Below, in pieces: positions 9,604-30,300 of a stretch of DNA of 64,000 nucleotides (position 1 is its first letter; every line of letters begins with the position of its first letter). The stretch covers positions 10,081 through 74,080 of the forward strand of contig VGHA01000004.1 in the NCBI GenBank assembly GCA_016868375.1. The letters are read 5' to 3'. The notes under the pieces are model-generated. The model was not told where the DNA came from. It saw only the letters and a list, made by a program, of their open reading frames with translations, and did not search any database. The translations under genes and the position numbers were made by a program. This DNA comes from Betaproteobacteria bacterium. Its GTDB lineage: Bacteria > Pseudomonadota > Gammaproteobacteria > Burkholderiales > Burkholderiaceae_E.

Positions 9604-9608
9604 GGCCG

Positions 9609-14921: not shown

Positions 14922-15098
14922 TTATCCCGCGGCAGACGACCGATCGGATGAATAGGCGTCAACCCGCCCCTGCGCAGTGGCCGTGATCGTGGCGCTTTCG
15001 ATGGCTTCGGCGGTCAAGGCCGCAGCATCGACGCCCAGGCTGTCGAGCCGCGCCGACAGATCACGCTTCAGATCGTTGAGCACCAGGATGCCGCCCAC
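14922..15098 (-). other. In-frame, coding-like 58-codon extension after the TAG stop of the 732-codon ORF, ending at TAA 14922-14924
   Basis: My hand translation of the minus strand directly after TAG (15099-15101) gives VGGILVLNDLKRDLSARLDSLGVDAAALTAEAIESATITATAQGRVDAYSSDRSSAAG. The codons are GC3-rich like the upstream ORF, and the sequence has the same style as upstream repeats. Confidence 0.5.
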
Positions 15099-17297
15099 CT
15101 ACAACCCGCCTGCGCTGGGCCGCCCGGCATCTGCCTTGGCAGTGGCCTTGAGCGAGTCGCGTGCAATCACCGACACGGTGCCGCCCGCCTTGATGCTTGC
15201 CACCCCGGTACGGGCTTCGACTTCGGCGCGCGAGCCGCCGCGGTAGCGATTGATCGCGAGCAGCCCCGCTGCGGCAGTGCGAATGCCCGGGTCGCTCAGC
15301 GCATCGGCAATGGCTTCCATGACCAGCGACGACCGTGCATCGACCGCTACCGCCCCGGTGGCATTGAGCCGGCTGGCATTGACGGTGACCGCGGTATCGC
15401 GCGCCTTGCCAGTGTCAGTGGGTTCGCCGCCCGCAAATTTTTTGGCGTCGAATGTGCCGAGATCGCCGACATAACGACCGACCAGCTTGACGGCCATGAC
15501 CGCTGCCTGGTCACCATCGGGGGTGGCGTTCATGCCCGTGGGTGTCTCGGCCGACAGCTTTGCCTGATCGCGGGCTGCAAGCTCAATGCCTGCGTCGGCG
15601 GTGATCGAGGTTTGATAAACCGATACGCCCGTGCCGCCATTGAGCGTGTTCCAGGCGCGAAGCGATCCGATGTTGATGTCAAAGCCCAAGGTGAGGCCAA
15701 GCAATGGCCCGGGCTTGGTGGGCCCCATCTTGCCGATCTTCACGTCGGACTCGAGCGCCTGGGCTGCGAGCGCCAGGCTGCGAACATTCGCCCCACTGAT
15801 GGTGGACCGCGCAACCGTGACGCTTACCGACGCCTCAACATCATTACCGGCAAGACTTGCCGGTAAATTGGAGACGCCGTACCAGGACTCGAGCAGCTCA
15901 CCGGTGTAACCGCCCCCGGTGGCCTTCCAGCTGGAGCGGTCCTGCGCGATCGGGTTCACGTCGCCCCGGGCGCGAATCGTCGCCAATTCGACCCGCACCG
16001 CCGTGCTGGTGGTGCCGACATTGCGCGCCTGCCGTGCAGTGGCCGCCAGACTGCTGGCATCGAGTGCAAACGCACGCAACCCCGCCACATCCAGCTCGGC
16101 GCCCGCGAGCGCGGCCTCCACCGCCGAGCGAACCAGCGCGGTGCTGGTGCCCGCCTGCTTGGAGCCTGCGAAATCGCTTAACAGCCCGCCCGCAGCGCGA
16201 TCGCGTGCGAGCGCAGCCACCTGCACCACGGGCGCAGCAACGCCCTGGCCCGGCGCCACCACCACCTTGCCGGTGCCATCGCCCAGATAAGCCCTCGCAT
16301 CCCGGGTAACCAGAATGCGGTTCCAGACGTCTTTGCTTGCGTCCGACCCCGCCAATACGGAGTCCTGCACCCCGATCACACTGCGCAGCTGAGTGGAATC
16401 GGTGGCCTCGAACAACACTGCTACCGTCGACGGCGCGGCGGCCTCCACCAGAGAGAGAGCGGCATTACCGCGCGCACCCGCCTCGCTTTTCTGCTGGACC
16501 GATAGCGTGACCTTGGAGCGCTCAACACCACTTCGCTCCACTTCCATCCGCACATCGGTATCAGCCACCACAAACACACCGGCGGCGGTCACTGAAGATT
16601 TCGCGCCCAGCACAGCGCTGGCCTGCACGTCAGCGCCAAGCGAAAAATCGGTGAGCGTTACGGCGGGCTTGCCGGTATAGCCCAGGGCTGCGCTTGCGAA
16701 CAGCATCAGGTCGCCAGCGGTCTTGACCGTGCCGTTGACGTTGACCGATGCGGCAACGGTGGCGCTTGCCGAGGTGGTTGGGGAACCGGTAAGCGACGCT
16801 TCGGCAATCAGGTGCACCCCAGCACCGGCCTGCAGCAACGCGCCCTCGCTGATCTCAATCGATTCGGATTCAACGACCAGCAGCGCAGAACCAAGGTCTG
16901 CGGTCTTCACCACCACCTGGTCAGCACCCCCCAGACCGCGGATCGCGAACAAACCGGTGGGTTTGGCAAACACCAGGTCGTAGAGGCTGTCGGCGCTGAC
17001 CCGCAACCGGCCGTCGGGCTCGGTGGCAAGCGTCACTTTGTTGTCGGCGGCAGACAGGTCAACGATCAGGTTCTGGACTTCTCCCGACAACGACAGCAGA
17101 TCGCCCGTGCCGGACAGGCGGCCGCTCTGCGAGGCGCCCCGGGTCAGGTCGATGACCGTGGCCGAGGGCTCAAACTGCGCAAGATCAACCTCGACCGTCT
17201 TGCGCTCAACAACGTTCAAGCTGACGTTGTCGGCGGAGATGTCTTTAGTCGTATCGGGACGCGTCTGCTGCAGCATCGGCTCGGCCGACAGCGACAC
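15099..17297 (-). CDS. Hypothetical repetitive Ala/Gly/Ser/Thr/Val-rich (beta-helix-like) protein, with no signal peptide and no cysteine; candidate second cargo
   Basis: 732-codon ORF with a GTG start preceded by GAGGA. Composition and short repeat style resemble the giant protein. It is the last gene of the minus-strand array and ends at an in-frame TAG (see findings). Confidence 0.6.
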   Translation of the reverse strand: MSLSAEPMLQQTRPDTTKDISADNVSLNVVERKTVEVDLAQFEPSATVIDLTRGASQSGRLSGTGDLLSLSGEVQNLIVDLSAADNKVTLATEPDGRLRVSADSLYDLVFAKPTGLFAIRGLGGADQVVVKTADLGSALLVVESESIEISEGALLQAGAGVHLIAEASLTGSPTTSASATVAASVNVNGTVKTAGDLMLFASAALGYTGKPAVTLTDFSLGADVQASAVLGAKSSVTAAGVFVVADTDVRMEVERSGVERSKVTLSVQQKSEAGARGNAALSLVEAAAPSTVAVLFEATDSTQLRSVIGVQDSVLAGSDASKDVWNRILVTRDARAYLGDGTGKVVVAPGQGVAAPVVQVAALARDRAAGGLLSDFAGSKQAGTSTALVRSAVEAALAGAELDVAGLRAFALDASSLAATARQARNVGTTSTAVRVELATIRARGDVNPIAQDRSSWKATGGGYTGELLESWYGVSNLPASLAGNDVEASVSVTVARSTISGANVRSLALAAQALESDVKIGKMGPTKPGPLLGLTLGFDINIGSLRAWNTLNGGTGVSVYQTSITADAGIELAARDQAKLSAETPTGMNATPDGDQAAVMAVKLVGRYVGDLGTFDAKKFAGGEPTDTGKARDTAVTVNASRLNATGAVAVDARSSLVMEAIADALSDPGIRTAAAGLLAINRYRGGSRAEVEARTGVASIKAGGTVSVIARDSLKATAKADAGRPSAGGL

Positions 17298-17447
17298 CCG
17301 ATCCTCAAGCCTTTCGACCTGTGCGCGGCTGCGGGCATACGCCAGCCTTCTGCCCCGTGGGGACCAGCGCTTGAATCGTTTTGCAAAAACGTGTCCATCA
17401 GAAACTCCAGAGAAAACCAGGCAGGCTTATCGGCTAGCCATCAAAGA

Positions 17448-18221
17448 TCAGTGCTCGTTGGGCGGCGACTTGAAGCCAGAGGTATCGGTCGGCGCCAGAG
17501 CGTCAGGGTCATCAACCGGCGGCCCGTCTTCGAGCCGCTCGAACTGCTGCAGAGAAACCAGGTGCGCGTAAATTGACGACAGCCAGCCTTCGCGACGCAG
17601 CTCGAAGAGCTTCGCGTCAGGAAGTCCGTCCAATCGCTCTTCGTTGATCACATAACAGCCGTTGACTTCGAGCGCCTCATCACCCCGGCGCGCGCGCACC
17701 GCAAACGGCGTAAACAGGTTGCGCGCCGCGAGCGCACGACAGAACGCGTCGGTGCGAAGCTGCATCTCGCGAATCTGCTGCAGCCACTCACGCGCCTGTT
17801 CAAGCGCCTCGGTGGGCGCACCCGCCGAATCAAACAGGCGGGCGCCTTCAGTGAGCGACACCAGTTCGCTCGCCGCATCGATGCAGACCGCAAAGCGTTC
17901 CGACTCGCCTTCGGCGGCTGCGCGCGCCAGCGCGAACGGATACGCGCGGATCACCGCAGGGATATAGGACGCGAGCCAGGTGCCATCGATATCAACATAG
18001 ATGTTTTCGCCCTCACGCAGGCCCAGGAGCGCCATGGGGCGGAAGCTGTCGATGTCCGGGTCTTCAACGAACACAATCGGATAGATCGCCGCAGCGCGAA
18101 CGAGCTCGGCCTGCATCAGCGCGGACATATGGACGCCGCGCGCAAACTCGAACCCGGTCTGCGGCCGCACGCGCAGCGCCGCATGGCGTTTCGAATTCAG
18201 TGCAACCAGTTCGCGAAACAC
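17448..18221 (-). CDS. SapC-family protein
   Basis: 257-aa ORF. The N-terminal pattern (LVALNSKRHAALRV...MSALMQAELVRAAAIYPIVFVED...) and the size match my memory of the SapC family (about 250 aa). It starts 15 nt after the SecA-like gene. Confidence 0.6.
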   Translation of the reverse strand: MFRELVALNSKRHAALRVRPQTGFEFARGVHMSALMQAELVRAAAIYPIVFVEDPDIDSFRPMALLGLREGENIYVDIDGTWLASYIPAVIRAYPFALARAAAEGESERFAVCIDAASELVSLTEGARLFDSAGAPTEALEQAREWLQQIREMQLRTDAFCRALAARNLFTPFAVRARRGDEALEVNGCYVINEERLDGLPDAKLFELRREGWLSSIYAHLVSLQQFERLEDGPPVDDPDALAPTDTSGFKSPPNEH

Positions 18222-18236
18222 GTCGACCAGACTCCT

Positions 18237-20258
18237 TCAGGCGCGGCTTGAGGGCTCGAACGGCAGGGCGTTGTCGAGCCAGTCATCGGACTTCAAAACG
18301 CCTCGACGACGCGAGAAGGCGTCGGCTTCCGCGCGTCGCTGTGACATTCGGATGAGCGCCCGCACCCACAGCGCGCGAAGCGGCAACCGCAGGCGTGCGG
18401 CTGTCGCAATCAGCGCCCGCGATGGGCGAGACACAAATCGCTTGATGAGGCCGTCCTCGGCGCTTACGAAAATCGATACGCTGCCGGGATCGCCCTGACG
18501 GCCGCATCGCCCGGCCAGCTGCCGATCGATACGTCCCGATTCATTGGCTTCGGCGATGATCACGTGCAGCCCACCTGCAGCCGGTACACCATCGCCCAGC
18601 CGAATATCGGTGCCGCGGCCCGCCATGTTGGTGGCGATGGTGATGCGCCCAGGCTCGCCTGCACGCGCGATGATGCGAGCCTCTTCAGCGTGCCTGACCG
18701 CATTGAGCAGCTCAAAGGGCAGACCGCGCGCGCCCAGCAGCGACGCCAGCGTTTCGCTTGACTCGACACTGCGTACGCCCACCAGCACCGGTTGGCCGCG
18801 CTCATGCAGCGAAACGATTTGCGCGACGACCGCCTGCCATTTGCGCCCCGCGGATTCAAACATCCGCGGCGCAGCCGTTCGGGTCAGCCGTGGCCGGTGG
18901 GTGGGAATAGGCACCACGCCCAGCTTGTAGATGCGCCAAAACTCGGCGGCGGCCTCGCGTGCAGTTCCAGTCGTTCCGGCAAGCCGGGGCATGCGCCTGA
19001 AGAATGACTGAAAGCTCATCTGGCCGAGCGATTCATTGGGGTCAGTCACATCGACCCCCTCGCGCGCCTCGATCGCCTGATGCAGGCCCGCGGTGAGCGT
19101 TCGGCCAGGCGTCATCCGCCCGGTGAACTCATCGAGCAGCACCACTTTGCCCTCGTCGACCAGGTACTGGTGGCCGCGCAGGATGAAGTGCCGCACGGTG
19201 AGGGCCTGGCGCAGAAGTTCTTCGCGACGCGGCTCGGCACGCCAGACAAGGCCCAGCTCGGCCGCGCGCGCAGTGAGCGCAGTGCGTGCGCCCTCGCGCA
19301 GCAACACGGTACGCTGGCGGCTGAGCAACTCGTAGTCGCGCCCCTCGACCATCTGATCGGCGATGGTCGCCACCAGCCTCGCTGCATCGGCGAGCCCAAG
19401 ATCGCTTCTTGGTGCCGACAGAATCAGCGGCGTGACAGCCTCATCGACCAGCACATTGTCAGCCTCGTCAACGATCACTGAATAGAGGCCCCGCACCTGG
19501 ATCTGCGGGGCCTGTGTATCAGGAGGCACCGTGCCGAGCCAGCGCCTGAGCGAAAGCCGCTGCGGATCGTGTCCGGCGCGCGCGGCAAGCTGATCGCGAA
19601 GGAAGTCAGCGAGCATCTCTTTTGCAGTGAGGTAGACCACATCGGCGCCGTAGCGCACGATTCGCTCCTCGGGCTTGTCGGTGGACACCACCGAGGCCAC
19701 CGAGACGCCGCATCGCTGGTAAAGCGGCGACATTTCCTGCGCATCACGCGCAGCCAGGTAGTCGTTGGACGTGACCAGATGGCAGGGCTCACCGCTCCAG
19801 GCGGCCAGCACCGCGCCAAGCGACGCCGTGAGCGTTTTTCCTTCGCCTGTGGCCATTTCAGCGAGCCAGCCACGATGAAGCGCGAGCGCACCCATGAACT
19901 GCACCGGATATGGCCGCATGCCAAGCGATCGGTAGGACGCCTCGCCGATTGACGCCAGCGCCTCGATCAGCCTGCCGCCGGCCTCGATCGGGTCCCGTCG
20001 TACCGCTTCGCGAAGCATGATCAGCTGGTCGGCAAACGCGGCGTCATCCAGCACGGAAAATTGCGCGCAGGCCTTCGCCACGCGCGCTGAGGCTCGCCGG
20101 AGTTTGACCGCATGGTGCCCGCGGCGCTTCACCCAGCCGTGTGTGGCGTGCGCAAACGCGTCGGCGCCCTCGGGAAGTTTGGGCGCGAGCGGCAGCGGCG
20201 GCGGCACAAAGCCGGCCGGAACACCGGTGCGGGGCAAGAGTGCGGCAGCGGCATCCAT
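18237..20258 (-). CDS. SecA-like ATPase (NBD1-PPXD-NBD2 motor) lacking most of the C-terminal translocation domains
   Basis: 673-aa ORF with SecA motifs: MATGEGKTLTA (19833-19856), VIVDEADNVLVDEAVTPLIL, VLLDEFTGRMTPGRTLTAGLHQAIEAREGV, AGTTGTA, TNMAGRGTDIRLG and GGLHVIIAEANESGRIDRQLAGRCGRQGDPGS. The protein ends about 70 aa after the last motif. Confidence 0.85.
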   Translation of the reverse strand: MDAAAALLPRTGVPAGFVPPPLPLAPKLPEGADAFAHATHGWVKRRGHHAVKLRRASARVAKACAQFSVLDDAAFADQLIMLREAVRRDPIEAGGRLIEALASIGEASYRSLGMRPYPVQFMGALALHRGWLAEMATGEGKTLTASLGAVLAAWSGEPCHLVTSNDYLAARDAQEMSPLYQRCGVSVASVVSTDKPEERIVRYGADVVYLTAKEMLADFLRDQLAARAGHDPQRLSLRRWLGTVPPDTQAPQIQVRGLYSVIVDEADNVLVDEAVTPLILSAPRSDLGLADAARLVATIADQMVEGRDYELLSRQRTVLLREGARTALTARAAELGLVWRAEPRREELLRQALTVRHFILRGHQYLVDEGKVVLLDEFTGRMTPGRTLTAGLHQAIEAREGVDVTDPNESLGQMSFQSFFRRMPRLAGTTGTAREAAAEFWRIYKLGVVPIPTHRPRLTRTAAPRMFESAGRKWQAVVAQIVSLHERGQPVLVGVRSVESSETLASLLGARGLPFELLNAVRHAEEARIIARAGEPGRITIATNMAGRGTDIRLGDGVPAAGGLHVIIAEANESGRIDRQLAGRCGRQGDPGSVSIFVSAEDGLIKRFVSRPSRALIATAARLRLPLRALWVRALIRMSQRRAEADAFSRRRGVLKSDDWLDNALPFEPSSRA

Positions 20259-20261
20259 GGG

Positions 20262-22433
20262 CTACACCCGGAACCTGCGCTGCAGAAACTGGCGAACGCC
20301 GCGCTCCCACTGCAACAGCAGCGGCGCGTCATCGAGCGTGAGGCGGATGGTGCCAAGCCGGCCATGCGCCAGGCCCAGCCCACCCCCCAGCGCCTCAAGC
20401 GGCAGCAGCGCCTGAATGCGGAAGAACGGTTCGGCGGCGGTGAGCCCATTTTGATCGGATGCGCTTACCGCGATGTCGCCGCCGCCTGCGAAGCCGAGCG
20501 CCCGCGAGGGCAGCGTGCCGGTTTCAAACGGAACGATCCTGGCCTCGGGCGCCACGATGTTGAGATGCTCCTGACCACGTAGCCGCAATTCAACCTGATG
20601 CACCCGGTTATCGAACAGGTGGGTGGCCACCTGCGGCAGCACGGCAACGAACCGCCAGCCATTGGGGTCGACGATGGCACCCAATGGCGAGCCGCGCGCC
20701 ACCCAGCGCCCCAGCCCGGTGTCGAGATCGGGCGCACTCCAGATGCCGTCGATCGGCGCGGTGACCAGCAGCGCCGCGCGCTGTCGCTCGAGCTCAGCAA
20801 TGACCGATTCAACCGCCACACGCTGGTGACGCAGCGGCATCAGGTCGGCCACTGACAAGGACGTTGCGCGCAGCTCCTGCGCAAGCAGCTGTTCGCGCTG
20901 CAGAAGCGCCGCGCGAAGATCAAACAGCAGATCGGGGCTTTCCAGGCGCATCAGCGGCTCACCCTGCCGAACGCTGGCACCGGGCAGCGCCATCAGCTCC
21001 ACCAGAAAGCCTGGCGACTCTGAATTGAGCTGCCGATAAGCGCTGGCCTCCAGCACACCCGAAGCGCGGATGCGATCGGGCATCGGCACCATGGAAAGGG
21101 GAACGATGACCACCGCCGCCACGGCCAGCGCGAGCCCGACCGTGCGCGCCCGGTAGTGGTGCAGGCGCGGACTCGTCGACAGAAACTTCAAAAATTTCCA
21201 GAGCGGCACCACCACCACGGTAAAGCCCAGTATCCAGGCAAGCGCCACCCCCAGATCGAGGTATTCGCCTGCAATGAAAAACACGATGGTGGCCATCAGC
21301 ATCAGCCAGTAGACGATGCTGGTCACGCCGTAAATCGGCAGCAGCCACGCTTCGGTCAAGGTGCGTGCCGCCGGTTTGGCGTTGGGCAGAAACAGCAGGA
21401 ACCGCTCGCCCAGATAGCGCAGCTGCTCGCGCGATCGCTGAAACAGATTAGGCACATCCAGAAAATCGACCAGCATGTGATAGCCGTCGAAGCGCAGCAG
21501 CGGATTCAGGTTAAAGAGCAGCGAGGACACGCTGGCCACGAAAATCACGTTGTAGGCAATGGCATTGACGGCGCCCGGCGCGGTATTGGCCCACAGCAGC
21601 GCCGCGACAGCCGCCACACCCAGTTCTGCGATCACGCCCGCGGCACCCGTCAGCAGCCGTTCGGCCCGGCTTCTGAAGCCCCAGCTGGAGGTGGCATCCA
21701 CATAGGGCATGGGTGCAAAGATGAGCAGCATCACGCCCATCTTATGAACCTCACCGCCATAACGCTTGCACACCGCCGCATGGCCAAATTCGTGGACCAC
21801 CTTGGCAATGATGAAGCCGACATACAGGAGCGGCAGATTGCCCGGGGCAAGCAGGCCCGCGCTCTGGCCAAACAGTGTGTCGGCCGAATCGATCAGCGCC
21901 TTGCCGGCCAACGCGAGCAGCGCCAGATACAGCACCGCGCCGATGGGACCAAACAGGAACCGGATCAGCGGCATGGCCGCCTGGAGCATGCGGTCGGGGT
22001 CGATCAAGGGAATCTTGATCGCCAGAAAACCCATCAGGAGCGCCTTGGTTTCCTGGCGGCGCCGCTTGCGATAGCGCTCAAAGAGGCTCGCACCCGCGCT
22101 GGAGCGGTCGAAGTTCAGCAGATTCGACAGATTGAGCTGCCCCAGAAGCTGCACCACTTCTTCCTGGGTGAGCGCCGTATCGGGGTCAGCTTCGAGCGTG
22201 AGCATCCAAGCCTCTTCAATGGTGCGCTCAAGCGACAATCGGCTGACAAAGGCCCACGCCTCGCCGCTGACACGAAACCAATCGGACGACAAGGTGTCGC
22301 GCAGCATCACCCAGGTGTCGCCACGGAAGGTTTGCCGGTGCGCGCGAACGCTTGAGCGAAGCTCAACCCGCACCTTGGCGACACGGTGCCAGGAGTCGCT
22401 GAACGTTCGAGAGGCTGGATCGTCAAAGCTCAT
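20262..22433 (-). CDS. Fusion protein: N-terminal PqqD/RRE-like domain, polytopic M50 (site-2 protease-like) metalloprotease, and C-terminal HlyD-type periplasmic adaptor domain
   Basis: 723-aa ORF with HEFGH at 21780-21794 and NLNPLLRFDG at 21483-21512. Several hydrophobic helices surround them. The C-terminal 250 aa have a coiled-coil plus barrel-sandwich style (RLESPDLLFDLRAALLQREQLLAQEL...LLVTAPIDGIW). Confidence 0.8.
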   Translation of the reverse strand: MSFDDPASRTFSDSWHRVAKVRVELRSSVRAHRQTFRGDTWVMLRDTLSSDWFRVSGEAWAFVSRLSLERTIEEAWMLTLEADPDTALTQEEVVQLLGQLNLSNLLNFDRSSAGASLFERYRKRRRQETKALLMGFLAIKIPLIDPDRMLQAAMPLIRFLFGPIGAVLYLALLALAGKALIDSADTLFGQSAGLLAPGNLPLLYVGFIIAKVVHEFGHAAVCKRYGGEVHKMGVMLLIFAPMPYVDATSSWGFRSRAERLLTGAAGVIAELGVAAVAALLWANTAPGAVNAIAYNVIFVASVSSLLFNLNPLLRFDGYHMLVDFLDVPNLFQRSREQLRYLGERFLLFLPNAKPAARTLTEAWLLPIYGVTSIVYWLMLMATIVFFIAGEYLDLGVALAWILGFTVVVVPLWKFLKFLSTSPRLHHYRARTVGLALAVAAVVIVPLSMVPMPDRIRASGVLEASAYRQLNSESPGFLVELMALPGASVRQGEPLMRLESPDLLFDLRAALLQREQLLAQELRATSLSVADLMPLRHQRVAVESVIAELERQRAALLVTAPIDGIWSAPDLDTGLGRWVARGSPLGAIVDPNGWRFVAVLPQVATHLFDNRVHQVELRLRGQEHLNIVAPEARIVPFETGTLPSRALGFAGGGDIAVSASDQNGLTAAEPFFRIQALLPLEALGGGLGLAHGRLGTIRLTLDDAPLLLQWERGVRQFLQRRFRV

Positions 22434-22443
22434 GATGCCGCGC

Positions 22444-24390
22444 TCAAATCCAGAAAACCTGCCTTAGATACCGAATGGTGCGATAGGTGAGCAGCCAGAT
22501 GATGCTGCGCTCGCCCGCCTCAAGTCGTGCGCTGCCGCCCATGCCGGGTCGCCACCACGGCTGAAACTCGGCCTCGATGCGGGCACGCGCCAGATACACA
22601 TTGCGTCCCTCACGCATGGTGGAAGCGGGATCGATCCGTTCGACCACCAGGGGATAGCGAAGATCGGGTCGGCCAACGAATGAGAACTGGCCACGCATGC
22701 CGATGGCGATTTCATGCACGTCGGCCTGATCGACTTCAAGCTCGACGTAGGTGTCACCCGTGTGGGCGAGCTTGACCAGCAGATCGCCTTTCCGAACAGG
22801 CGCGCCCAAGTTCTTTTTCAGCTCGCCCTCGACCACCACGCCAGTGAAGGGCGCCCGAAGCTGCGCATGAGCGAGCTGATGACGCGTGAGCTCGAGCTTG
22901 GAGGCAGCCTGCTGCTGGCGCGCCAGCGCGATCTGCATATCGGCAAGCTGGCGCGCAGCCTGGGCTTTTTCGGCCTCACGCGCGTACCGAACCGCGTCCG
23001 CCGCTGCCATGGCCTCTTCGAGGATCAGTTCGCGCGTGTCAAGTTCGACCAGCAGCGCGCCGGTTCGCACCGCATCGCCCACTTCAATGTAGGCATTGCG
23101 CAGGTAGCCATCAAACGGCGCGGGAATGAACAGGATGTCCTTGCTGCGAAGCGCGACCGGCGTACTGATTCGGTAGGGCCAGGGCAGCACCGCCAGCAGC
23201 GTGATCAGCACCGCCGTCCCAACCCCCACCAGTTTCCAGGCGGTATAGCTTGGCCCAAGCAGCAGGTCGCGCCATGCGACGAGCCGGGCAAACGCTCGCG
23301 CGCCAATCCAGCGGTCGGTGTCGTGCAGCACCACGAGCTGCCGGGCGCTGGACTCGCCAATGAGGCGCAGCTCCCAGGTTTCGCCAGGCTCGAACGCCCG
23401 GGCCCGACGTTCCAGGGTGAGCACCGCGACCGCGACATTGTCGACTCGCAGCGGCACCGACAGCAGATGCCCCGAGCCCTGCGTGCGTGAATAGGTTTCA
23501 TGCGCGCGGCCCACGATCCGGGCATCGGGCGCTATCGGCCAGGCAAGTTCGATGTTCTGGTCGAGCGCCTCTTCCATGGCAGATTCAAGCTCGCGCGAGG
23601 CGTTGGCGCGGCGATCAAACTTTTCAACATGACTGACCGCGGTCAGCCGTACATAGCGGCTGCGCACCCAGCCCAGCGACACCCGGTCGCACTGAAAACG
23701 CACGGCAAGCTCATTGGCGAGCGTGAGCGCGGCGCGCATGAAACGGGTTTCAGCGCCCAGACGAATCGATAGCTGCAGCACGTCATACAGACGCTCTGCG
23801 CCGGTGGCCTGGGGCGAGCCCGCTTGCGCGGCCTGCTGCGACGCGGATTGCGCAACCAGCGCACGAAAACGCGCGTATTGAGCGGGAATTGACCCGGCCA
23901 GATCGGCGAGTGCGATCAGCGTTGCCGCATCCGAGGCGGCAGCGCCTGCAATCGGCGCCTGCGGCAGGATCACGATGACGGCGGTCTGCCCGGCCTGCAC
24001 CGTATCGGCTGCCAGGCGCGTCGAGATGGCGGGCGCGTTGCCGCCGGGCCGAGCCGCTGCCGCGCCCGAGGGCGGTGCTATGGCGGCATCGCCCAGGCCT
24101 GGCTCGAGATAAGGCGACTCGTCGGCCGCGCCATCTGCGAGCCTCAGGATTCGAAGCGCATCGCCCGTCTGGTCGGGTGCACCCTGTGGCCACTGCGCCT
24201 GCGGCTGCCATCCCCGCTCATCATCGCGGGCAAGAAGCAGCACCCGACGCGCGACAAACGCGAGCGCCACGGCCTCGAGGTAGGCGGGCCAGAAGGCCTG
24301 CGCATCACCCGTAAACGATGCAAGCTCAGCGAGCCTCGCCGAACCCCGACGGACGTCGGCACCTTGCCGGGCGAGGAGCTCTGCGTGCAT
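22444..24390 (-). CDS. GAF-domain / single-TM / HlyD-family membrane fusion protein
   Basis: 648-aa ORF with a cytoplasmic GAF-like region (LANELAVRFQCDRVSLGWV...HLLSVPLRVDNVAVAVLTLER) and a TM helix (WKLVGVGTAVLITLLAVLPWPY). The rest is an HlyD hairpin and beta-barrel region (FDGYLRNAYIEVGDAVRTGALLVELD...LRAPFTGVVV). Confidence 0.8.
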   Translation of the reverse strand: MHAELLARQGADVRRGSARLAELASFTGDAQAFWPAYLEAVALAFVARRVLLLARDDERGWQPQAQWPQGAPDQTGDALRILRLADGAADESPYLEPGLGDAAIAPPSGAAAARPGGNAPAISTRLAADTVQAGQTAVIVILPQAPIAGAAASDAATLIALADLAGSIPAQYARFRALVAQSASQQAAQAGSPQATGAERLYDVLQLSIRLGAETRFMRAALTLANELAVRFQCDRVSLGWVRSRYVRLTAVSHVEKFDRRANASRELESAMEEALDQNIELAWPIAPDARIVGRAHETYSRTQGSGHLLSVPLRVDNVAVAVLTLERRARAFEPGETWELRLIGESSARQLVVLHDTDRWIGARAFARLVAWRDLLLGPSYTAWKLVGVGTAVLITLLAVLPWPYRISTPVALRSKDILFIPAPFDGYLRNAYIEVGDAVRTGALLVELDTRELILEEAMAAADAVRYAREAEKAQAARQLADMQIALARQQQAASKLELTRHQLAHAQLRAPFTGVVVEGELKKNLGAPVRKGDLLVKLAHTGDTYVELEVDQADVHEIAIGMRGQFSFVGRPDLRYPLVVERIDPASTMREGRNVYLARARIEAEFQPWWRPGMGGSARLEAGERSIIWLLTYRTIRYLRQVFWI

Positions 24391-25526
24391 CAGCGTCTGG
24401 CCCGGTTCGCTGGCGGCGTCGCGCCTGGCGAGGACACCGAGGTGGCGGTAATGCGGCCGGCCGTTCCGGGCCGAATCGATCCGTCGGCGTTGTCGAATTC
24501 AGCAATCACATCCACCAGTCCGCTGGCCGGATCAGCGACCGGCGATACAAACACCAGCTGCGCGAGCCGGGTTAAGGGCTCCGCATCAGATCCGAGCTGC
24601 AGCATCACCGAGCTGCCGGCGCGCACCCGGGCAGCGTCTGCGATCGGCACGGTGCCGCTGAAGCGCGCCGTGCGCACATCAACGACCACCATGACCGGTT
24701 CGTGGGGCGCGACGCTTTCACCGATGCGCGAGACGATTCGCGTGACCACGCCATCGATTGGCGAGCGCAGGTGCCGCCGCTCGTAGGCCTCGCGCGCCAG
24801 ATCGAGTTCAACGCGCTCGCGCCGCTTGGCAAACTCAATCGACTTGCGCTCGGCGATGATGGTGCCCAGCGCGAGCTCTTCATCTTCAACCTGTTTGCGC
24901 GACACGCCGCCGGTGGTCAGAAGCGATTTCGCCGAACGCACCTGTTCAGTCAGGGTGAGCTCTTTGGCGCGCAGCTCTTCAAGCCGGGCGTTGTCCTCGA
25001 GCATGACCTCGCGGCGCCGAACCTCGAGCGACTCAAGGGTTCGGTCCATGTGAAGGAGCAGGTCGCCCTTGCGCACCCGATCGCCTTCCTTCACGAACAG
25101 CGCTTCGATGCGGCCAGCGGCGGTCACGCTCAGCTTAAGGTCATGGATGGCCTGCGTGATGCCGGCGGCCGGCGTCACGGCGCCTGACGCGGCTGCAGGC
25201 CTCGCGGCACTGGCGCCTGCGGTCGCAGCCGAATCCGCTGTCGCGCCGGTACCGGAAGCGGCGGCCGGCTGCGCTGCGGGAACCGCAAACGAGGGGGCTG
25301 CAGGCTCGGGGATCCTGGGCAGGTCAGCGCGGCCGGACGCGGGAAGCGACTGCACCGGCCCGCGTTGCGCGCCGGCAGCGGGCACATTGAGCGCGGGCGA
25401 CGCGGCAGGGGACGCGTCAGACGCCCAACCCGGCGTCGCAGCCGCCACCAGCGTGAGGGACAGGACGAGCCCTGCCACGCAACGCGCCCCGGCGAAGTGC
25501 TTCTGGCACTGCATCAGCCACGCCAT
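24390..25526 (-). CDS. HlyD/RND-type periplasmic adaptor (membrane fusion protein) with signal peptide
   Basis: 378-aa ORF with an N-terminal signal-like segment and an Ala/Pro-rich linker. It has a lipoyl-like motif (IEALFVKEGDRVRKGDLLLHMD), a coiled coil, and LRSPIDGVVTRI. Both ends have ATGA overlaps with neighbouring genes. Confidence 0.8.
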   Translation of the reverse strand: MAWLMQCQKHFAGARCVAGLVLSLTLVAAATPGWASDASPAASPALNVPAAGAQRGPVQSLPASGRADLPRIPEPAAPSFAVPAAQPAAASGTGATADSAATAGASAARPAAASGAVTPAAGITQAIHDLKLSVTAAGRIEALFVKEGDRVRKGDLLLHMDRTLESLEVRRREVMLEDNARLEELRAKELTLTEQVRSAKSLLTTGGVSRKQVEDEELALGTIIAERKSIEFAKRRERVELDLAREAYERRHLRSPIDGVVTRIVSRIGESVAPHEPVMVVVDVRTARFSGTVPIADAARVRAGSSVMLQLGSDAEPLTRLAQLVFVSPVADPASGLVDVIAEFDNADGSIRPGTAGRITATSVSSPGATPPANRARR

Positions 25527-27160
25527 CAGCGCCAGCGATCCAGCAACTGCCCCTGGGCGGCCTCGAGCAGTACATCGGCCTTGCTCCAGGCCACCTGCTG
25601 CTCGATCACCGCCAGCCGCGCGTTAATGGCGCGCTCTTCGCGCAACAGGATTTCGCGCATGTCGCTACGGCCCGCGGAAAGCCGCGTGCGCTCCAGTTCA
25701 AGCTGACGCTGCTCGCGCTCGGCAACGTCTTTCCAAAGCGACCAGCGTTCGTTGGCGCTTGCCAGCATGCCAATGCCCGTGTCGATGTCGTTCGCAATCG
25801 CCACCTCAAGCGCCTTCAACTGCAGCAGCGCATCCTCTTTGCGCAGCTTCGCCGCCTGGATGTCCGCCTTCGCCTGCCGGTTCTCCCCCAGCGGCATCGA
25901 CAACTGCAGCCCCAGCGTCCACGACGGGTAGTCATTCATCCTCATGTACGACAGCGAGCGCGCCGCCGACATCTCCAGACCGTTCATGCCGTAGCTCGCC
26001 ACCAGATCGAGCTTGGGCAGTCCCTGGTTGTTCGCATACGCAAGCTGGATGCCCTCGCGCTCGAGCATCGCCTTGCGCATCCGGTAGTCGTCGCGGCGCT
26101 CGATCGCGCGCCGCATCGCCTGTTCAAACGCCACCGCCCGGCCCTGAACCGCCGGCAGCGCGTCGCTGGCACGCAGGCTCGCCGGCGCCTCGTTGGCTGC
26201 CACCATCAGCAGCGTGCGAAGCTTGTTGACCCGCTCCTGCACACCCTGGCGGGCCTCACTCAGGCCAGCCTGGAAGCGACCCAGGTTGTTCTCAACTTCC
26301 CAGATTTCAGACTGCGGCAGCCGGCCCTGTCGGTTGAGCGCGCGAGCCTCCTGCAGCAGCCGCTCGCCCATTCGGACCTTCTCAATGGCCGACCCGGCGC
26401 GCTCCTGCGCAAGCAGCAGATCCCAGTAGGAGAACACCGCCTCGGCGACCACGCTCGCTTCGGTATCGCCGCTGGCAAATTTCGCCGCCCGCGTGTCCAA
26501 CTCAGCAACCCGTACCCGCGCCAGCGTGACATCGCGACCCGCGTCACGCGCCAGCGGCTGCGTGAGGGTGAGTCCGTAGAACGCCCGGTAGTCGTCGTTG
26601 TCGTTCTGACGGATGTTGCGCGTGATGTTGGTCATGAACTTCGACATCGTCGCCTTGGCCTCAACCTTGGCGCCGGTTTCGAGCAGCTGCGACACACCCA
26701 CCGAGTAGTCAACGCCGGTGCGGTCATACAGACCGAGACCCTGACGAATGAGATCTTCCTCAGGGGTGTTCTTTAGCCGCTGACGGCCATTGAGCACCGA
26801 GACCGAGGCCTGCGGCTGGAAAGCCGAGCCCGCGCGCTCGATGCTGGTGCCGGCGATTTCCTGTTCGGTTCGCTTGGACAGGATCGCCTTGTTCGCAGCG
26901 CGAATCTGGCGCACGAAGGGGGCCAGTTGAAGGTTGGTTTCGCGGGCGGTGGCGGTGGCCGCGGCGGGAGCGGCGGCGGGGGATTGAGCCGCCACCGGCG
27001 TCATCGCGATCGACATGAGCGCCGCGCAAGCCAAGGCCCAGCGCGATACGCCACCCATCGACTGCGGGGGGTGGCTTGCCCGCGGCTGCGGTGAGTCGGG
27101 ATGCGTTCCGCCGCACGTCACGAGTCGGTATCGCCAATAGGTTGAAACAGGTGGTTTCAT
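25526..27160 (-). CDS. TolC-family outer membrane efflux protein
   Basis: The ORF has two internally repeated OEP-like halves with long helical segments (e.g. ARVRVAELDTRAAKFA..., LQLKALEVAIANDIDTG...). The signal peptide MGGVSRWALACAALMSIAMTPVAAQ begins at the ATG at 27058. The 34 codons upstream of it have low GC3, so the true start is probably 27058 rather than 27160. Confidence 0.8.
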   Translation of the reverse strand: MKPPVSTYWRYRLVTCGGTHPDSPQPRASHPPQSMGGVSRWALACAALMSIAMTPVAAQSPAAAPAAATATARETNLQLAPFVRQIRAANKAILSKRTEQEIAGTSIERAGSAFQPQASVSVLNGRQRLKNTPEEDLIRQGLGLYDRTGVDYSVGVSQLLETGAKVEAKATMSKFMTNITRNIRQNDNDDYRAFYGLTLTQPLARDAGRDVTLARVRVAELDTRAAKFASGDTEASVVAEAVFSYWDLLLAQERAGSAIEKVRMGERLLQEARALNRQGRLPQSEIWEVENNLGRFQAGLSEARQGVQERVNKLRTLLMVAANEAPASLRASDALPAVQGRAVAFEQAMRRAIERRDDYRMRKAMLEREGIQLAYANNQGLPKLDLVASYGMNGLEMSAARSLSYMRMNDYPSWTLGLQLSMPLGENRQAKADIQAAKLRKEDALLQLKALEVAIANDIDTGIGMLASANERWSLWKDVAEREQRQLELERTRLSAGRSDMREILLREERAINARLAVIEQQVAWSKADVLLEAAQGQLLDRWR

Positions 27161-27323: not shown

Positions 27324-30300
27324 TCATGCATCCGTCCTTTCAGATTGCGTGCTGCCGCGGTCAACACTGGCTGAGTTCTCAAGCGAAAGTCTGACTGTTG
27401 GGTCAGCCGAAACCGCCGGGGCATCGGCCGGTAAACCCTGCTGCGGGTCAGTGGTCACCACCCCCTCCGCGGGTCGATCGAACCAGCGTGCCAGACGATC
27501 CGCCAGCCCGTGAACCACCCCGCCCAGGCGCGCACGAATCCCGGTAACTCTCAGCGCCGGCTCTGCTGGCTCGGACTCGGACGTGGTGGCCGGTGTTGAG
27601 CGATCGCTTCGCGGTGCCTCAGCCGGGGCCGCGCCCGAGTCAGGCGCTGAGCCTGGCTCCGGCGGCTGACCAGGCGCCGGTTCCGGCGTGCCAGCGGGCG
27701 CAGCGCCTGCCGGCGGCGTAACCGGCAGCACCGGCGCTGCGGGCGCTGCGGGCGCTGACTCCGACCGCGCGGCGGGACTGCGTGCAGCATCGCTGACCGA
27801 CTGCATGGCCACGGTCGCGCTGACGCTCTGCGATACCGGCTGGAGGACCGCCGAGACCGGACGCTGTTCCACCACCCGCGGGGCCGCTTCGGTAATCAGC
27901 GTGCTGCTGACCGTGACGGGCGTTGCGCTGCCGCGCGAGGCAATCACCTGCGTGATCGGAATCGCGGACTGGGCCCCGAGCAAGCCCTCGGTGACAGCTT
28001 GCAGGCCTGCCGAGAGCACGTTGGCCGTACTCGATGAAATCGTCGGCGATGCAAGCCCGGTGGTGCTCGCAGTCGCCCCGGCCGCGCCCGCTGGCTGCGA
28101 GAACAGGCCGCCCGACACGAGGCTGATCATCGATAAGGCTTCCTTCTCGGCGATCGCGGTCTTGCCCGCCAGCATCACCGATCGGCCGCTACGTGCCTCG
28201 AGCCGACCGGGTTCTATCCGCCCGGTTTGCGTGAGGAGCGCGACCCAGCCAGTGCGTGACTCGTTGACAACCCCGGCCGCGCCAATTCGAAGCCCCGTCT
28301 CGCCTGCCAGCACGATGTGCCCGCCGGAACTGTTGCGCGCTTCAACCGACCCCACGCTGACCCGCAGACTGGCCTCGCCAAACTGCCCGATACCGTTCAC
28401 AGCGGCCAGTTGCAGCGCCCGCGAGGTTCGAATATTGAAGGCCCGGTCGGTGGTTGAGTCGTAGATTGCGCCACTGCTGGTGACACGGATGGATCCGCTG
28501 CTGGATTGGATTCGCGCGATCCCGATGTCGCCATCGGCCTGCAAAGCGATGTCGCCCTCGGTGGTTGAAATGCTGCTGCCAGGTTCCATGACGATAGAAC
28601 CCGAGCTGGTGATGCGAACCTTGCCCATCGGCGCCGAGATGCCATCGACGACTTTCAGCGGGCCTTGAGCGTCGATGAAAACATCGCCGCGTTCGCTGAC
28701 CGCGGACACGCCCGCTGCCGCAACGGCGGCCGCCAGATCGCCCGCGGCGCGAATCCGCGCCAGTCCCGTGGTTCGGACCTGGGTGGTGGCGGCCGAATCA
28801 AGGTCCAGGGACACATCACCAGTCGCGGCAACCGTGACCGCCGCGCCGATCAGGCTCAAGGTTCCACCGATCCGGTTGGCTGCGTCATCGAGCACAATCG
28901 ACTGCGCCGCGGCACTGATGCGGCCACCGCCAGCGATCTCGAGTGCTCCCTGCTGGCGAACCGCACCCGCCGAATCAATATCGACCCGGCCGGCGAGACG
29001 ACCGCTGACCAGCAGGACCTCACCGTCTGCATCGGTACGAACCGAGAGCAGGCTGTTTGCCCCGCTGGCCTGCGCCGCCAGTCGCAGCGCACCCTGCGCG
29101 CGCACGCTGGCATCGCCTGACACCGCAAGCGACAGATCCAGCGGGCCCGCATCGCGGATTCGTGCAACGCCCGCCTCGATCCTCACCGGTCCGTCGAACT
29201 GGTTGTCGCCCCGTGACAGGTCGACAACACGCCCTGCTGCACGGACCTCGGTCGTTCCCGTGACCTTCGCGGCGCCCGTCTGTTCAACCCCGCCCTGCAG
29301 CAGGAGATCGCCTGCGATCTGCACTTCGCCCAGGCGGATCAGCCCCGATTCGCTCGCAAGCGAGGTGTTGCCGTCGACGCGAAGCGTTGCGGCCGACAGC
29401 GCTTCACCCTGGCTGATCGCAGACAGCCTTGCCTGCGCACCCGTTACCTTGCCGGACACTGCGAGACTGCCGCCAGCCCGCACCACCGCCGACGCAGACT
29501 CGTCAGCCGCCCGCGATGCATCGCTTTGCGACAGGTCGAGCGTCACCGCGACGTCGTTGCGGTCGGACAGCGACGCGGCGCGCCCGATCAGCGTCACCGT
29601 GGCGCCGAAATCATTGTCACTGCGATCAAGGATGATCTGGCCCTGCGCACCCGCATCCAGGCGGCTCGCGCCGCCGAGGGTGAGGCCTCCGGTCTGGCTG
29701 ATTGAGCCGCTCGCGTTGACCGCCATGATGCCGCTCATCTGAAGCGCGCCCAGGCTTGCCGCGGCGCCTGCCTGCAGCGTCAGATTGGCGCGTGACCCGG
29801 TCAGGCGGCCCTCGACCGAAGCGGCGCCCGCCGCCGTCAGCGTGACCGGGCCTGCCGCATCGAGCGACACGGTGAGCGCGTTCCGATCAAGGATCGTGGC
29901 CGCCCCCCCGCGCAGCGTGAGCCGCGAACCGAAGTCGTTGCCAGCCGCCGTCAGCACGGTGCTGGTTGAGCGAATCACCGCGTCGCCGCTTACCTGTATC
30001 TGCGTACCCTCGGCCTGCGTCAGCTGACCGGCCTCGGAGTCGATGCTGAGGCCACCCACATTGAGCGAGACCGCAAGCGTCACATCATCGGTATTGACGA
30101 TCGACAGCGTCCGGCTGCTGAGGGTGACGGCACCGCCCGCCTGGGCTGGCGTCGTCACCAGATCCGCTCCGGTGCGGCCTGCGATCGCGAGGCTGGCAAT
30201 TTCCAGGGCCCCGCCATCGACCGCCACGGTGCCAAGATTCAAGGTCTCGACACCGGTGAACGCGACCCGGTTAGCATCGCCCGCGAGCATGCCGTCTTTA

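Follow-up and report, generated by a model that had tools for sequence, protein, structure and literature searches.

Why should a peptide-binding domain, an intramembrane protease and the adaptor of an export channel be joined in a single polypeptide? The question is raised by a 723-amino-acid (aa) protein encoded close to a giant gene on contig VGHA01000004.1 of a Betaproteobacteria bacterium (Burkholderiales), of which we analyzed a stretch of 64,000 nucleotides (the window). A first-pass annotation, made from the letters alone, had read the protein as a fusion of a PqqD-type RiPP recognition element (RRE; RiPPs are peptides made by the ribosome and modified after translation), an M50 site-2 protease (S2P) and an HlyD-type membrane-fusion protein (MFP), and had suggested that it recognizes a segment of its substrate, cleaves it and couples it to a periplasmic tunnel. 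All three domain calls were borne out by Pfam, motif invariance, AlphaFold2 (AF2) models, Foldseek and the PqqD matches of homologs, and the recognize-cleave-couple logic appears to fit the evidence best. With moderate confidence we favor the view that the protein serves an envelope-spanning exporter for giant surface proteins as the subunit that recognizes and processes cargo; this exporter would resemble a type I secretion system (T1SS) and be independent of an ATP-binding cassette (ABC) transporter.

A membrane protease fused to a periplasmic adaptor

The gene and the parts of its product are as follows.

20262..22433, minus strand: target gene, encoding the 723-aa RRE(PqqD)-M50(S2P)-HlyD/MFP fusion (open reading frame (ORF), Pfam and NCBIfam matches, AF2 model)
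22104..22364, minus strand: RRE/PqqD-like winged-helix domain, aa ~24-110, predicted to be cytoplasmic (PF05402 matches of homologs, AF2 fold, Foldseek)
21087..21998, minus strand: M50/S2P membrane core, aa ~146-449, with seven hydrophobic segments (Pfam M50, NF041824, invariant motifs, transmembrane (TM) scan)
21780-21794, minus strand: HExxH motif (HEFGH, aa 214-218)
21483-21512, minus strand: NxxPxxxxDG motif (NLNPLLRFDG, aa 308-317)
20265..21086, minus strand: HlyD/MexA-type membrane-fusion domain, aa 450-723 (HlyD_3, HlyD_D23, Foldseek, alpha-hairpin)

It is almost certain that a cytoplasmic RRE/PqqD domain, a seven-TM M50 core and a periplasmic adaptor are combined here in one polypeptide. 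The AF2 model of the full-length protein (pLDDT 78.7) consists of a helical membrane core followed by a beta-rich periplasmic domain. A Kyte-Doolittle scan placed seven hydrophobic segments within aa 159-449, and the loop at 413-430, directly before the last of them, is positively charged, as expected of an inside loop; the N-terminus is therefore predicted to be cytoplasmic and the C-terminus periplasmic, a topology that fits what the fusion requires. The protein has more than 1,860 homologs, many with a precomputed PF02163 annotation. An exhaustive search with its N-terminal segment yielded 997 representative clusters (50% identity) from Beta-, Alpha- and Gammaproteobacteria, Verrucomicrobiota and Planctomycetota, and because the members are mostly 700-740 aa long the whole architecture appears to be conserved. 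By the Prokaryotic Genome Annotation Pipeline (PGAP), plasmid-encoded homologs of full length are called 'site-2 protease family protein', 'HlyD family ... adaptor', 'PqqD family protein' or 'PqqD family peptide modification chaperone'.

The two protease motifs lie exactly where the first-pass annotation had placed them, each at the end of a hydrophobic helix (Kyte-Doolittle segments 192-210 and 289-307; AF2 helices 197-224 and 288-308), with HEFGH inside helix 197-224. Among 60 homologs with 61-95% identity, H214, E215, H218, N308, N310, P311, D316 and G317 are all invariant. A set of 93 full-length relatives of wider diversity retains HExxH in 91 cases and the strict NxxPxxxxDG pattern in 75. 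The invariance in the close homologs and the retention of HExxH in the diverse ones place these motifs beyond chance. The first-pass annotation had proposed Pfam scans of the separate segments and a prediction of membrane topology; besides the seven TM segments, these gave a match of the excised core to Peptidase_M50 (PF02163) at 28.4 bits (25.4 bits for the whole protein; cutoff 27.2) and matches of the C-terminal third to HlyD_3 (24.4 bits; cutoff 22.2) and HlyD_D23. On the M50 core alone the NCBIfam model NF041824 scored 169 bits, and the RseP model TIGR00054 scored only 6.9 bits.

The reading of the C-terminal ~250 aa as an HlyD adaptor likewise stands: the adaptor part matched MexA, AcrA and MacA in Foldseek (E ~1e-12), and the AF2 model has a two-helix hairpin in it (500-525 and 532-553). 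The LLVTAPIDGIW string quoted for this part is located at aa 555-565, and the TM segment 431-449 directly precedes the domain.

The N-terminal domain has the fold of a RiPP recognition element

The PqqD-type winged helix had been called by eye, from a string that we located at aa 36-106. The call is correct, though the support is indirect. A Pfam scan of the first 135 aa of the target found no match even at E<=10, and a PDB sequence search with the same 135 aa, alone or as a 48-sequence profile, returned no PqqD/RRE match. We then scanned 48 homologous N-terminal domains, 34-65% identical to that of the target, individually; 34 of them matched Pfam PqqD (PF05402), with a best E-value of 1.8e-8. 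As the target's own copy is unmatched and 34 of its 48 homologs do match, its PqqD membership is assigned by transitive homology.

Because the full-length model gave only MFP matches in Foldseek, we built a separate model of the N-terminal domain. This model (pLDDT 86.6) shows the arrangement expected of an RRE, beta3-alpha3, with strands at 29-36, 39-46 and 52-56 and helices at 57-63, 72-82 and 90-102. Its best PDB match was the RRE of the lasso-peptide protein TbiB1 co-crystallized with its leader (probability 0.99, TM score 0.59-0.69, E 0.04); LynD and ThcOx, which also bear an RRE, came next. R54 in beta3 and Q90 in alpha3 are invariant, L97 and L100 in alpha3 are near-invariant, and all four lie on the canonical leader-binding face. 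The RRE portion of NF041824 is collinear with the N-terminal part of the target, and this part alone reached only E 0.013. The candidate ligand of the domain would be the LEPR-XLL leader of the adjacent giant proteins, which is described below.

Ahead of the RRE, aa 8-28 (window ~22350-22412, minus strand) form a strongly conserved segment, TFS(D/E)SW(H/Y)RV...LR, which lies outside the part aligned to the daptide peptidase model NF041824. Both alignments have W15 without exception; the diverse set keeps F11 and L25 almost throughout, and among close homologs S12, H16, R22, L25 and R26 do not vary. The SecA paralog encoded next to the target may dock at this segment. A 1,933-aa protein (P0213) with ten stretches matching the N-terminal domain (E 9e-20) turned out on inspection to be a cadherin-like tandem-repeat protein; its matches are probably repeat-amplified noise, not an array of RREs.

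The gene belongs to a conserved module with a SecA paralog and no ABC transporter

Five genes for parts of a putative export apparatus, including the target, are present, contiguous and on one strand, and a sixth gene adjoins them.

25526..27160, minus strand: TolC/OEP-type outer-membrane factor, 544 aa (Pfam OEP E 2e-26; synteny)
24390..25526, minus strand: conventional HlyD/MFP adaptor, 378 aa (overlapping the flanking gene at either end)
22444..24390, minus strand: GAF + single TM + HlyD adaptor, 648 aa (Pfam GAF, HlyD_3 and HlyD_D23; TM segment 384-402; 10 nt upstream of the target)
18237..20258, minus strand: secondary SecA-like ATPase, 673 aa (Pfam SecA_DEAD, PP_bind and P-loop_SecA; 3 nt downstream of the target; synteny)
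17448..18221, minus strand: SapC-family protein, 257 aa (Pfam SapC E 1.8e-70; often found with the module)

Along the minus strand a giant ORF comes first, then the TolC-like OEP, HlyD, GAF-HlyD, target, SecA-like and SapC genes and a 732-aa ORF (p732). The gaps are -1 to 10 nt from the TolC-like through the SecA-like gene and at most 15 nt from TolC to SapC. The SecA-like protein aligns to residues 33-603 only of Bacillus subtilis SecA, that is, to the first nucleotide-binding domain, the preprotein cross-linking domain (PPXD) and the second nucleotide-binding domain (NBD1-PPXD-NBD2). It is without the wing domain, the two-helix finger, which is the part that inserts into SecY, and the C-terminal tail, and every SecA model scored below its equivalog cutoff. 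It has no TM segment in a TM scan, in which the other two MFPs are single-pass.

We recovered 72 genome loci for an analysis of synteny. The GAF-HlyD, M50-HlyD and SecA-like genes are adjacent in ~60 of them, from Burkholderiales, Magnetococcales, Methylomonas, Opitutaceae and several lineages of Planctomycetota; the products of this trio are 31-98% identical, the GAF-HlyD gene keeps its place from Burkholderiales to Planctomycetota, and a TolC and a third MFP gene are adjacent or close by. No ABC transporter was found among the ORFs of at least 150 aa scanned in the window, nor is one annotated in the module part of the alphaproteobacterial plasmid examples. The lack of an ABC transporter, in whose place the module has a truncated SecA paralog, is the most unusual feature of the system and had gone unremarked in the first-pass annotation. 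ORFs of ~700 aa each at 7558-11705, considered as a hidden T1SS ABC transporter, encode UvrD and PriA helicases, and the remaining genes of the window are housekeeping genes.

A comparative study had described a conserved module of a secondary SecA_DEAD protein and three proteins with an HlyD part, of which the first is weakly similar to Peptidase_M50, the second carries a GAF domain and the third is plain; an OEP accompanies them sometimes and an ABC transporter never, and the authors proposed that the SecA paralog is the ATPase and the M50 protein possibly the membrane pore (Kamneva, Poudel & Ward, 2015; PMC4452313). The window holds the same set (M50+HlyD, GAF+HlyD, HlyD/biotin-lipoyl, OEP, truncated SecA_DEAD, no ABC transporter), and the target belongs to this secondary SecA_DEAD, T1SS-like module. 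That work was purely comparative and mentions neither PqqD/RRE ('pqqd', 0 occurrences) nor giant proteins ('giant', 0 occurrences) nor a leader motif (PMC4452313); the RRE and the link to LEPR-XLL cargo are added here.

The 2015 proposal bears directly on the function of the M50 domain, which might mainly be a polytopic inner-membrane scaffold or pore (Kamneva et al., 2015), with the RRE tethering the cargo or the SecA paralog and cleavage not being key. The target is the only polytopic membrane protein of the operon, something must serve as conduit in the absence of an ABC transporter, and the match to the M50 profile is weak, as was also noted in 2015. However, a pure scaffold would be expected to lose its catalytic residues, and here the zinc ligands and NxxPxxxxDG are invariant in close homologs and HExxH persists in 91 of the 93 diverse relatives; nor are S2P folds known as protein-conducting pores. 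We consider this explanation unlikely; it is compatible with an exporter subunit that reads and clips its cargo, and the two are not exclusive.

Several observations concern the accessory genes and their annotation. The SapC gene accompanies the module in many loci and divergently adjoins the giant gene of Alisedimentitalea (L103, 958-1755). On alphaproteobacterial plasmids (L101, L104, L105, L106) the gene for a small DUF3467 protein (~100 aa) is conserved and separates the giant gene from that of the first adaptor; it is missing from the window and from other Burkholderiales loci, which have SapC in its stead, an exchange that may reflect the swap of a chaperone or accessory role. PGAP names the SecA-like gene variously 'prepilin peptidase', 'DEAD/DEAH box helicase', 'hypothetical protein' or 'preprotein translocase subunit SecA' (L104, 22204-24120; L101, 22142-24127; L106, 22171-24132), and because of this inconsistency the module is obscured in annotation-based searches. 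A 2026 preprint reports sapC and tolC beside the giant Cag_663/665 proteins of Chlorochromatium, and the Chlorobi are among the phyla with a secondary SecA (PMC4452313); the Chlorochromatium genes may represent the same system.

Giant genes beside the module encode an N-terminal LEPR-XLL leader

The window contains one giant ORF and the remnant of another.

27324..64000, minus strand: giant ORF, >12,225 aa, presumed cargo (N-terminus beyond the window end; no stop codon to the window edge)
14943..17387, minus strand: remnant of a second giant LEPR-XLL gene, p732 (the '732-aa protein', ORF 15099-17297; homology to L042)
17277-17333, minus strand: damaged leader of p732, RSRAQVERLEDRVSLSAEP

The C-terminal 3,000 aa of the window giant contain 15 DUF5649 domains, and PA14/GLEYA domains and a single RTX repeat lie further in. 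Related C-termini are encoded upstream of the module in eight loci. The last ~150 aa of the giant are rich in Pro, Ala and Ser and are followed by a short amphipathic-looking stretch, IRARLGGVVHGLADRLARWF.

The first-pass annotation had proposed to map the mature termini of the 732-aa protein along with those of the giant. This protein is no independent substrate; p732 is a pseudogene remnant with a frameshifted start, an in-frame stop codon, a damaged motif and a 3' deletion. Over 815 aa it is 83.7% identical to the N-terminal part of a >3,088-aa ORF (locus L042), and the homology begins upstream of the called start, continues for ~52 codons past the stop codon and ends beside an unrelated gene for a TPP enzyme, the remainder of the giant gene having been deleted. 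A TAG at 15099-15101 replaces a Gln codon, the original MDTFL start is present and out of frame by a 1-nt indel, and LL has become SL in the motif, which reads LEDRVSLSAEP and is not matched by NF012209. That p732 might be a paralogous piece of the upstream giant was discarded, blastp against the giant ORF finding no similarity.

In many relatives the p732 homolog opens an ORF that extends beyond the end of the locus (>3,088 aa in L042 and >2,646 aa in L051 from Opitutaceae). At the start of these ORFs a basic stretch leads into a conserved motif, which in Burkholderiales reads RSRxxVERLEDR[VI]LLSAEP, in Opitutaceae LESLEPRLLLSADG and in Pirellulales IELLEPRLLLSADLG; KRWSPRGRKLAYARSRAQVERLEDRVLLSAEPMLQQ is an example of a LEPR-XLL peptide of 30-40 aa, and the invariant core is E-x-L-E-x-R-x-L-[LM]-S-A. 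Examples from all three groups match the NCBIfam model NF012209 ('LEPR-8K', LEPR-XLL domain) at 22.5-25 bits (cutoff 17).

A scan of the 72 loci for the leader motif found 28 with exactly one match, always on the module strand and just downstream of the SecA-like or SapC gene; the match lies 26-186 codons into an ORF that runs off the locus in 27 of the 28, and shuffled sequences gave one or two matches in total. We also made the reciprocal search, scanning metagenomes with the leader alignment alone as seed. The pattern LE[DP]R[VIL]LLSA[ED] matched at least 600 metagenome stretches, 27 of which were confirmed as p732-like N-termini. The SecA-like gene is immediately upstream in 19 of these 27 loci, and the whole module is present in 11 of the 14 that have at least 6 kb of upstream sequence.

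Four alphaproteobacterial plasmids carry giant genes of 8,148-10,603 aa upstream of the module, in the orientation seen in the window, and all four products have the leader.

Pontibrevibacter giant, ~10,603 aa: PGAP 'LEPR-XLL domain-containing protein', leader MEPRVLLSADP
Alisedimentitalea giant, 8,148 aa: PGAP 'calcium-binding protein', leader VEQLEPRLLLAAD, in frame just upstream of the annotated ATG
Methylosinus giant, 8,847 aa: leader LEPRVLLNAD
Mesorhizobium giant, 10,518 aa: leader LEPRLLLSAD

Giant genes at the module (8,000 to >12,000 aa) with LEPR-XLL thus occur in Beta- and Alphaproteobacteria, Verrucomicrobiota and Planctomycetota. In Alisedimentitalea (L103, NZ_CP123586.1 ~183225-183330; also L100) PGAP placed the start downstream of the leader, which is hidden in the annotation for that reason; such starts may be common among giant genes.

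Relation to daptide proteases and to type I secretion

The best NCBIfam match of the target is NF041824, 'daptide biosynthesis intramembrane metalloprotease' (DapP/MpaP), which has the same N-terminal RRE and M50 core and is collinear with the target over aa 24-412 (E 1e-57; 195.9 bits, cutoff 300). DapP has been described as an 'RRE-dependent intramembrane peptidase' and is proposed to remove an N-terminal leader under guidance of its RRE. The target has a C-terminal MFP domain and DapP does not. DapP acts on peptides of ~50 aa in Gram-positives and is encoded in RiPP clusters with DapA/B/C/D/M and an ABC exporter, whereas the partners of the target are TolC, MFPs, a SecA paralog and proteins of >8,000 aa; the window has no DapA/B/C/D/M-like genes. 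The epipeptide protease model NF058609 (YydH/LiaK) matched the catalytic core only (36 bits, cutoff 225; E 6e-9). With sub-cutoff scores and the wrong context, membership in either family was rejected and the target is placed outside both equivalogs.

These matches could nevertheless mean that the target is a RiPP-type leader peptidase and exporter for a small peptide, comparable to DapP or YydH/LiaK, and that it lies beside giant genes because of a shared TolC or a genomic island. RREs are classically binders of RiPP leaders, PGAP uses the name 'PqqD family peptide modification chaperone', and the two RiPP peptidase models are the best curated matches. Yet both scores are far under their equivalog cutoffs, neither a gene for a precursor peptide nor one for a RiPP tailoring enzyme is conserved in the ~100 neighborhoods examined, the gaps from TolC to SapC are at most 15 nt in the window, and what is conserved beside the target, across four phyla, is a SecA paralog that has a preprotein-binding domain, together with giant genes sharing an N-terminal motif. 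We regard a small-peptide substrate as very unlikely.

The daptide leader motif ELExMEAP and the giant leader (E)RLEDRxLLSAEP both have an acidic-Leu-acidic start and an A/E-P end. As the RRE-S2P proteases of the two systems are homologous, we considered that this likeness might reflect a shared logic of recognition or cleavage; it could also be coincidence.

With the classical T1SS (HlyB-HlyD-TolC; LapBCE in the case of giant adhesins) the module shares a TolC-type channel, MFP adaptors and a giant, repetitive, partly RTX-type cargo, which imply export in one step. It differs in having three different MFPs and a SecA-paralog motor, and, as it has no ABC transporter, it stands outside the classical T1SS. 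Moreover, the conserved signal is the N-terminal LEPR-XLL motif rather than a C-terminal one, and the polarity of threading would therefore be the opposite. RseP and SpoIVFB have the same core of HExxH and NxxPxxxxDG in membrane helices; RseP is gated by periplasmic PDZ domains and SpoIVFB by a CBS domain, whereas the accessories of the target are a cytoplasmic RRE and a periplasmic MFP. An analogy is offered by the peptidase-containing ABC transporters (PCATs) of the C39 type, in which the reading of an N-terminal leader, its removal and the delivery of the cargo to an export conduit all fall to one membrane protein. PCATs combine a C39 cysteine protease with an ABC transporter and export small bacteriocins, and their folds are unrelated to an RRE, an M50 metalloprotease and an MFP.

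The first-pass annotation knew of no characterized example of the three-domain combination. This is true as regards experiments, though parts of it were on record in the RRE-S2P fusions of daptide clusters, the M50+HlyD protein of the 2015 module and the PGAP 'PqqD family' names.

A model for leader-guided export

For a subunit that recognizes, cleaves and couples giant cargo, the following sequence of events can be envisaged. By analogy with RiPP systems, the RRE would bind the LEPR-XLL leader and place it at the M50 active site, which would clip it off, as proposed for the homologous DapP/MpaP. The SecA-like motor, with its ATPase and preprotein-binding domains, would thread the unfolded giant chain N-terminus first; candidates for the inner-membrane conduit are an oligomer of the M50 protein or SecYEG. 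The fused MFP, which probably joins the other two MFPs in a hetero-oligomer, would dock to TolC, and the chain would leave without a periplasmic intermediate. The roles of the SecA paralog as ATPase and of the M50 protein as membrane component gain support from having been proposed independently (Kamneva et al., 2015).

We give little credence to a quality-control or regulatory S2P on the tunnel, which would clear stalled or truncated giants or release a signaling fragment, with the GAF-MFP as sensor and no obligatory leader removal: regulated intramembrane proteolysis and the clearance of leftover signal peptides are tasks of S2Ps such as RseP, the GAF domain points to a sensor role and the export of chains of >12,000 aa must jam often, but no sigma/anti-sigma pair or other substrate of regulated intramembrane proteolysis is conserved near the module, and an RRE implies recognition of a specific peptide, such as the defined, conserved one at the cargo N-terminus.

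Other observations weigh against a leader-reading exporter subunit. The target's own RRE is not matched by the PqqD profile, and the Foldseek E-values of the domain are weak (0.04-0.15). The NxxPxxxxDG pattern was not found in 18 of the 93 diverse relatives, and for distant M50-HlyD relatives (L069-L072) no SecA-like or GAF-HlyD neighbor was detected. Classical S2Ps cut transmembrane or membrane-proximal helices, and the LEPR-XLL region is charged and non-hydrophobic; cleavage by DapP, on which the analogy draws, is only 'predicted'. The PPXD of the SecA paralog, instead of the RRE, could be the reader of LEPR-XLL. The sole leader visible in the window belongs to the pseudogene. That of the window giant has to be taken from other genomes, because its N-terminus lies outside the window and a protein search with the most N-terminal 800 aa returned fragments of 448-1,394 aa only, none with the motif. 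Finally, some LEPR-XLL giants are 'orphans' far from any module, which implies either several cargos per module or other routes.

The neighbors of such orphans (L074, L075, L077, L081, L088, L095) are unrelated genes, including sulfatases, a 7TMR-DISM histidine kinase and acyl-CoA enzymes; none of the orphans was found beside a canonical T1SS.

Implications for the export of giant proteins

Already known were the RRE-S2P fusions of daptide clusters, the secondary SecA module of 2015 and the LEPR-XLL signature in NCBIfam. New with respect to the accessible literature are the RRE in the M50-HlyD protein of the module and the tie between the module and LEPR-XLL giants. Our literature searches found two incidental mentions of LEPR-XLL and no functional study of RRE + site-2 protease + HlyD, of LEPR-XLL or, after 2015, of the secondary SecA, and a T1SS review does not mention an M50-MFP.

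The export of proteins of at least 10,000 aa is poorly understood outside the LapA/RTX T1SS paradigm. Once the 2015 module, the daptide RRE-S2P proteases and the orphan LEPR-XLL signature are joined, a testable mechanism emerges, with a defined cargo signal and a candidate receptor domain, processing protease and motor. We tentatively suggest, as a possibility rather than the expected outcome, that the module is a distinct secretion pathway of diderm bacteria, in which the leader is read by an RRE and removed by an S2P and the chain is driven by the truncated SecA paralog, N-terminus first, into a hetero-oligomeric MFP/TolC conduit with no ABC transporter. If so, it would combine the motor logic of Sec with leader recognition as in RiPP systems and an envelope architecture of the T1SS type; it would extend leader recognition by RREs from small RiPP precursors to giant proteins, and it would explain the purpose of the LEPR-XLL motif.

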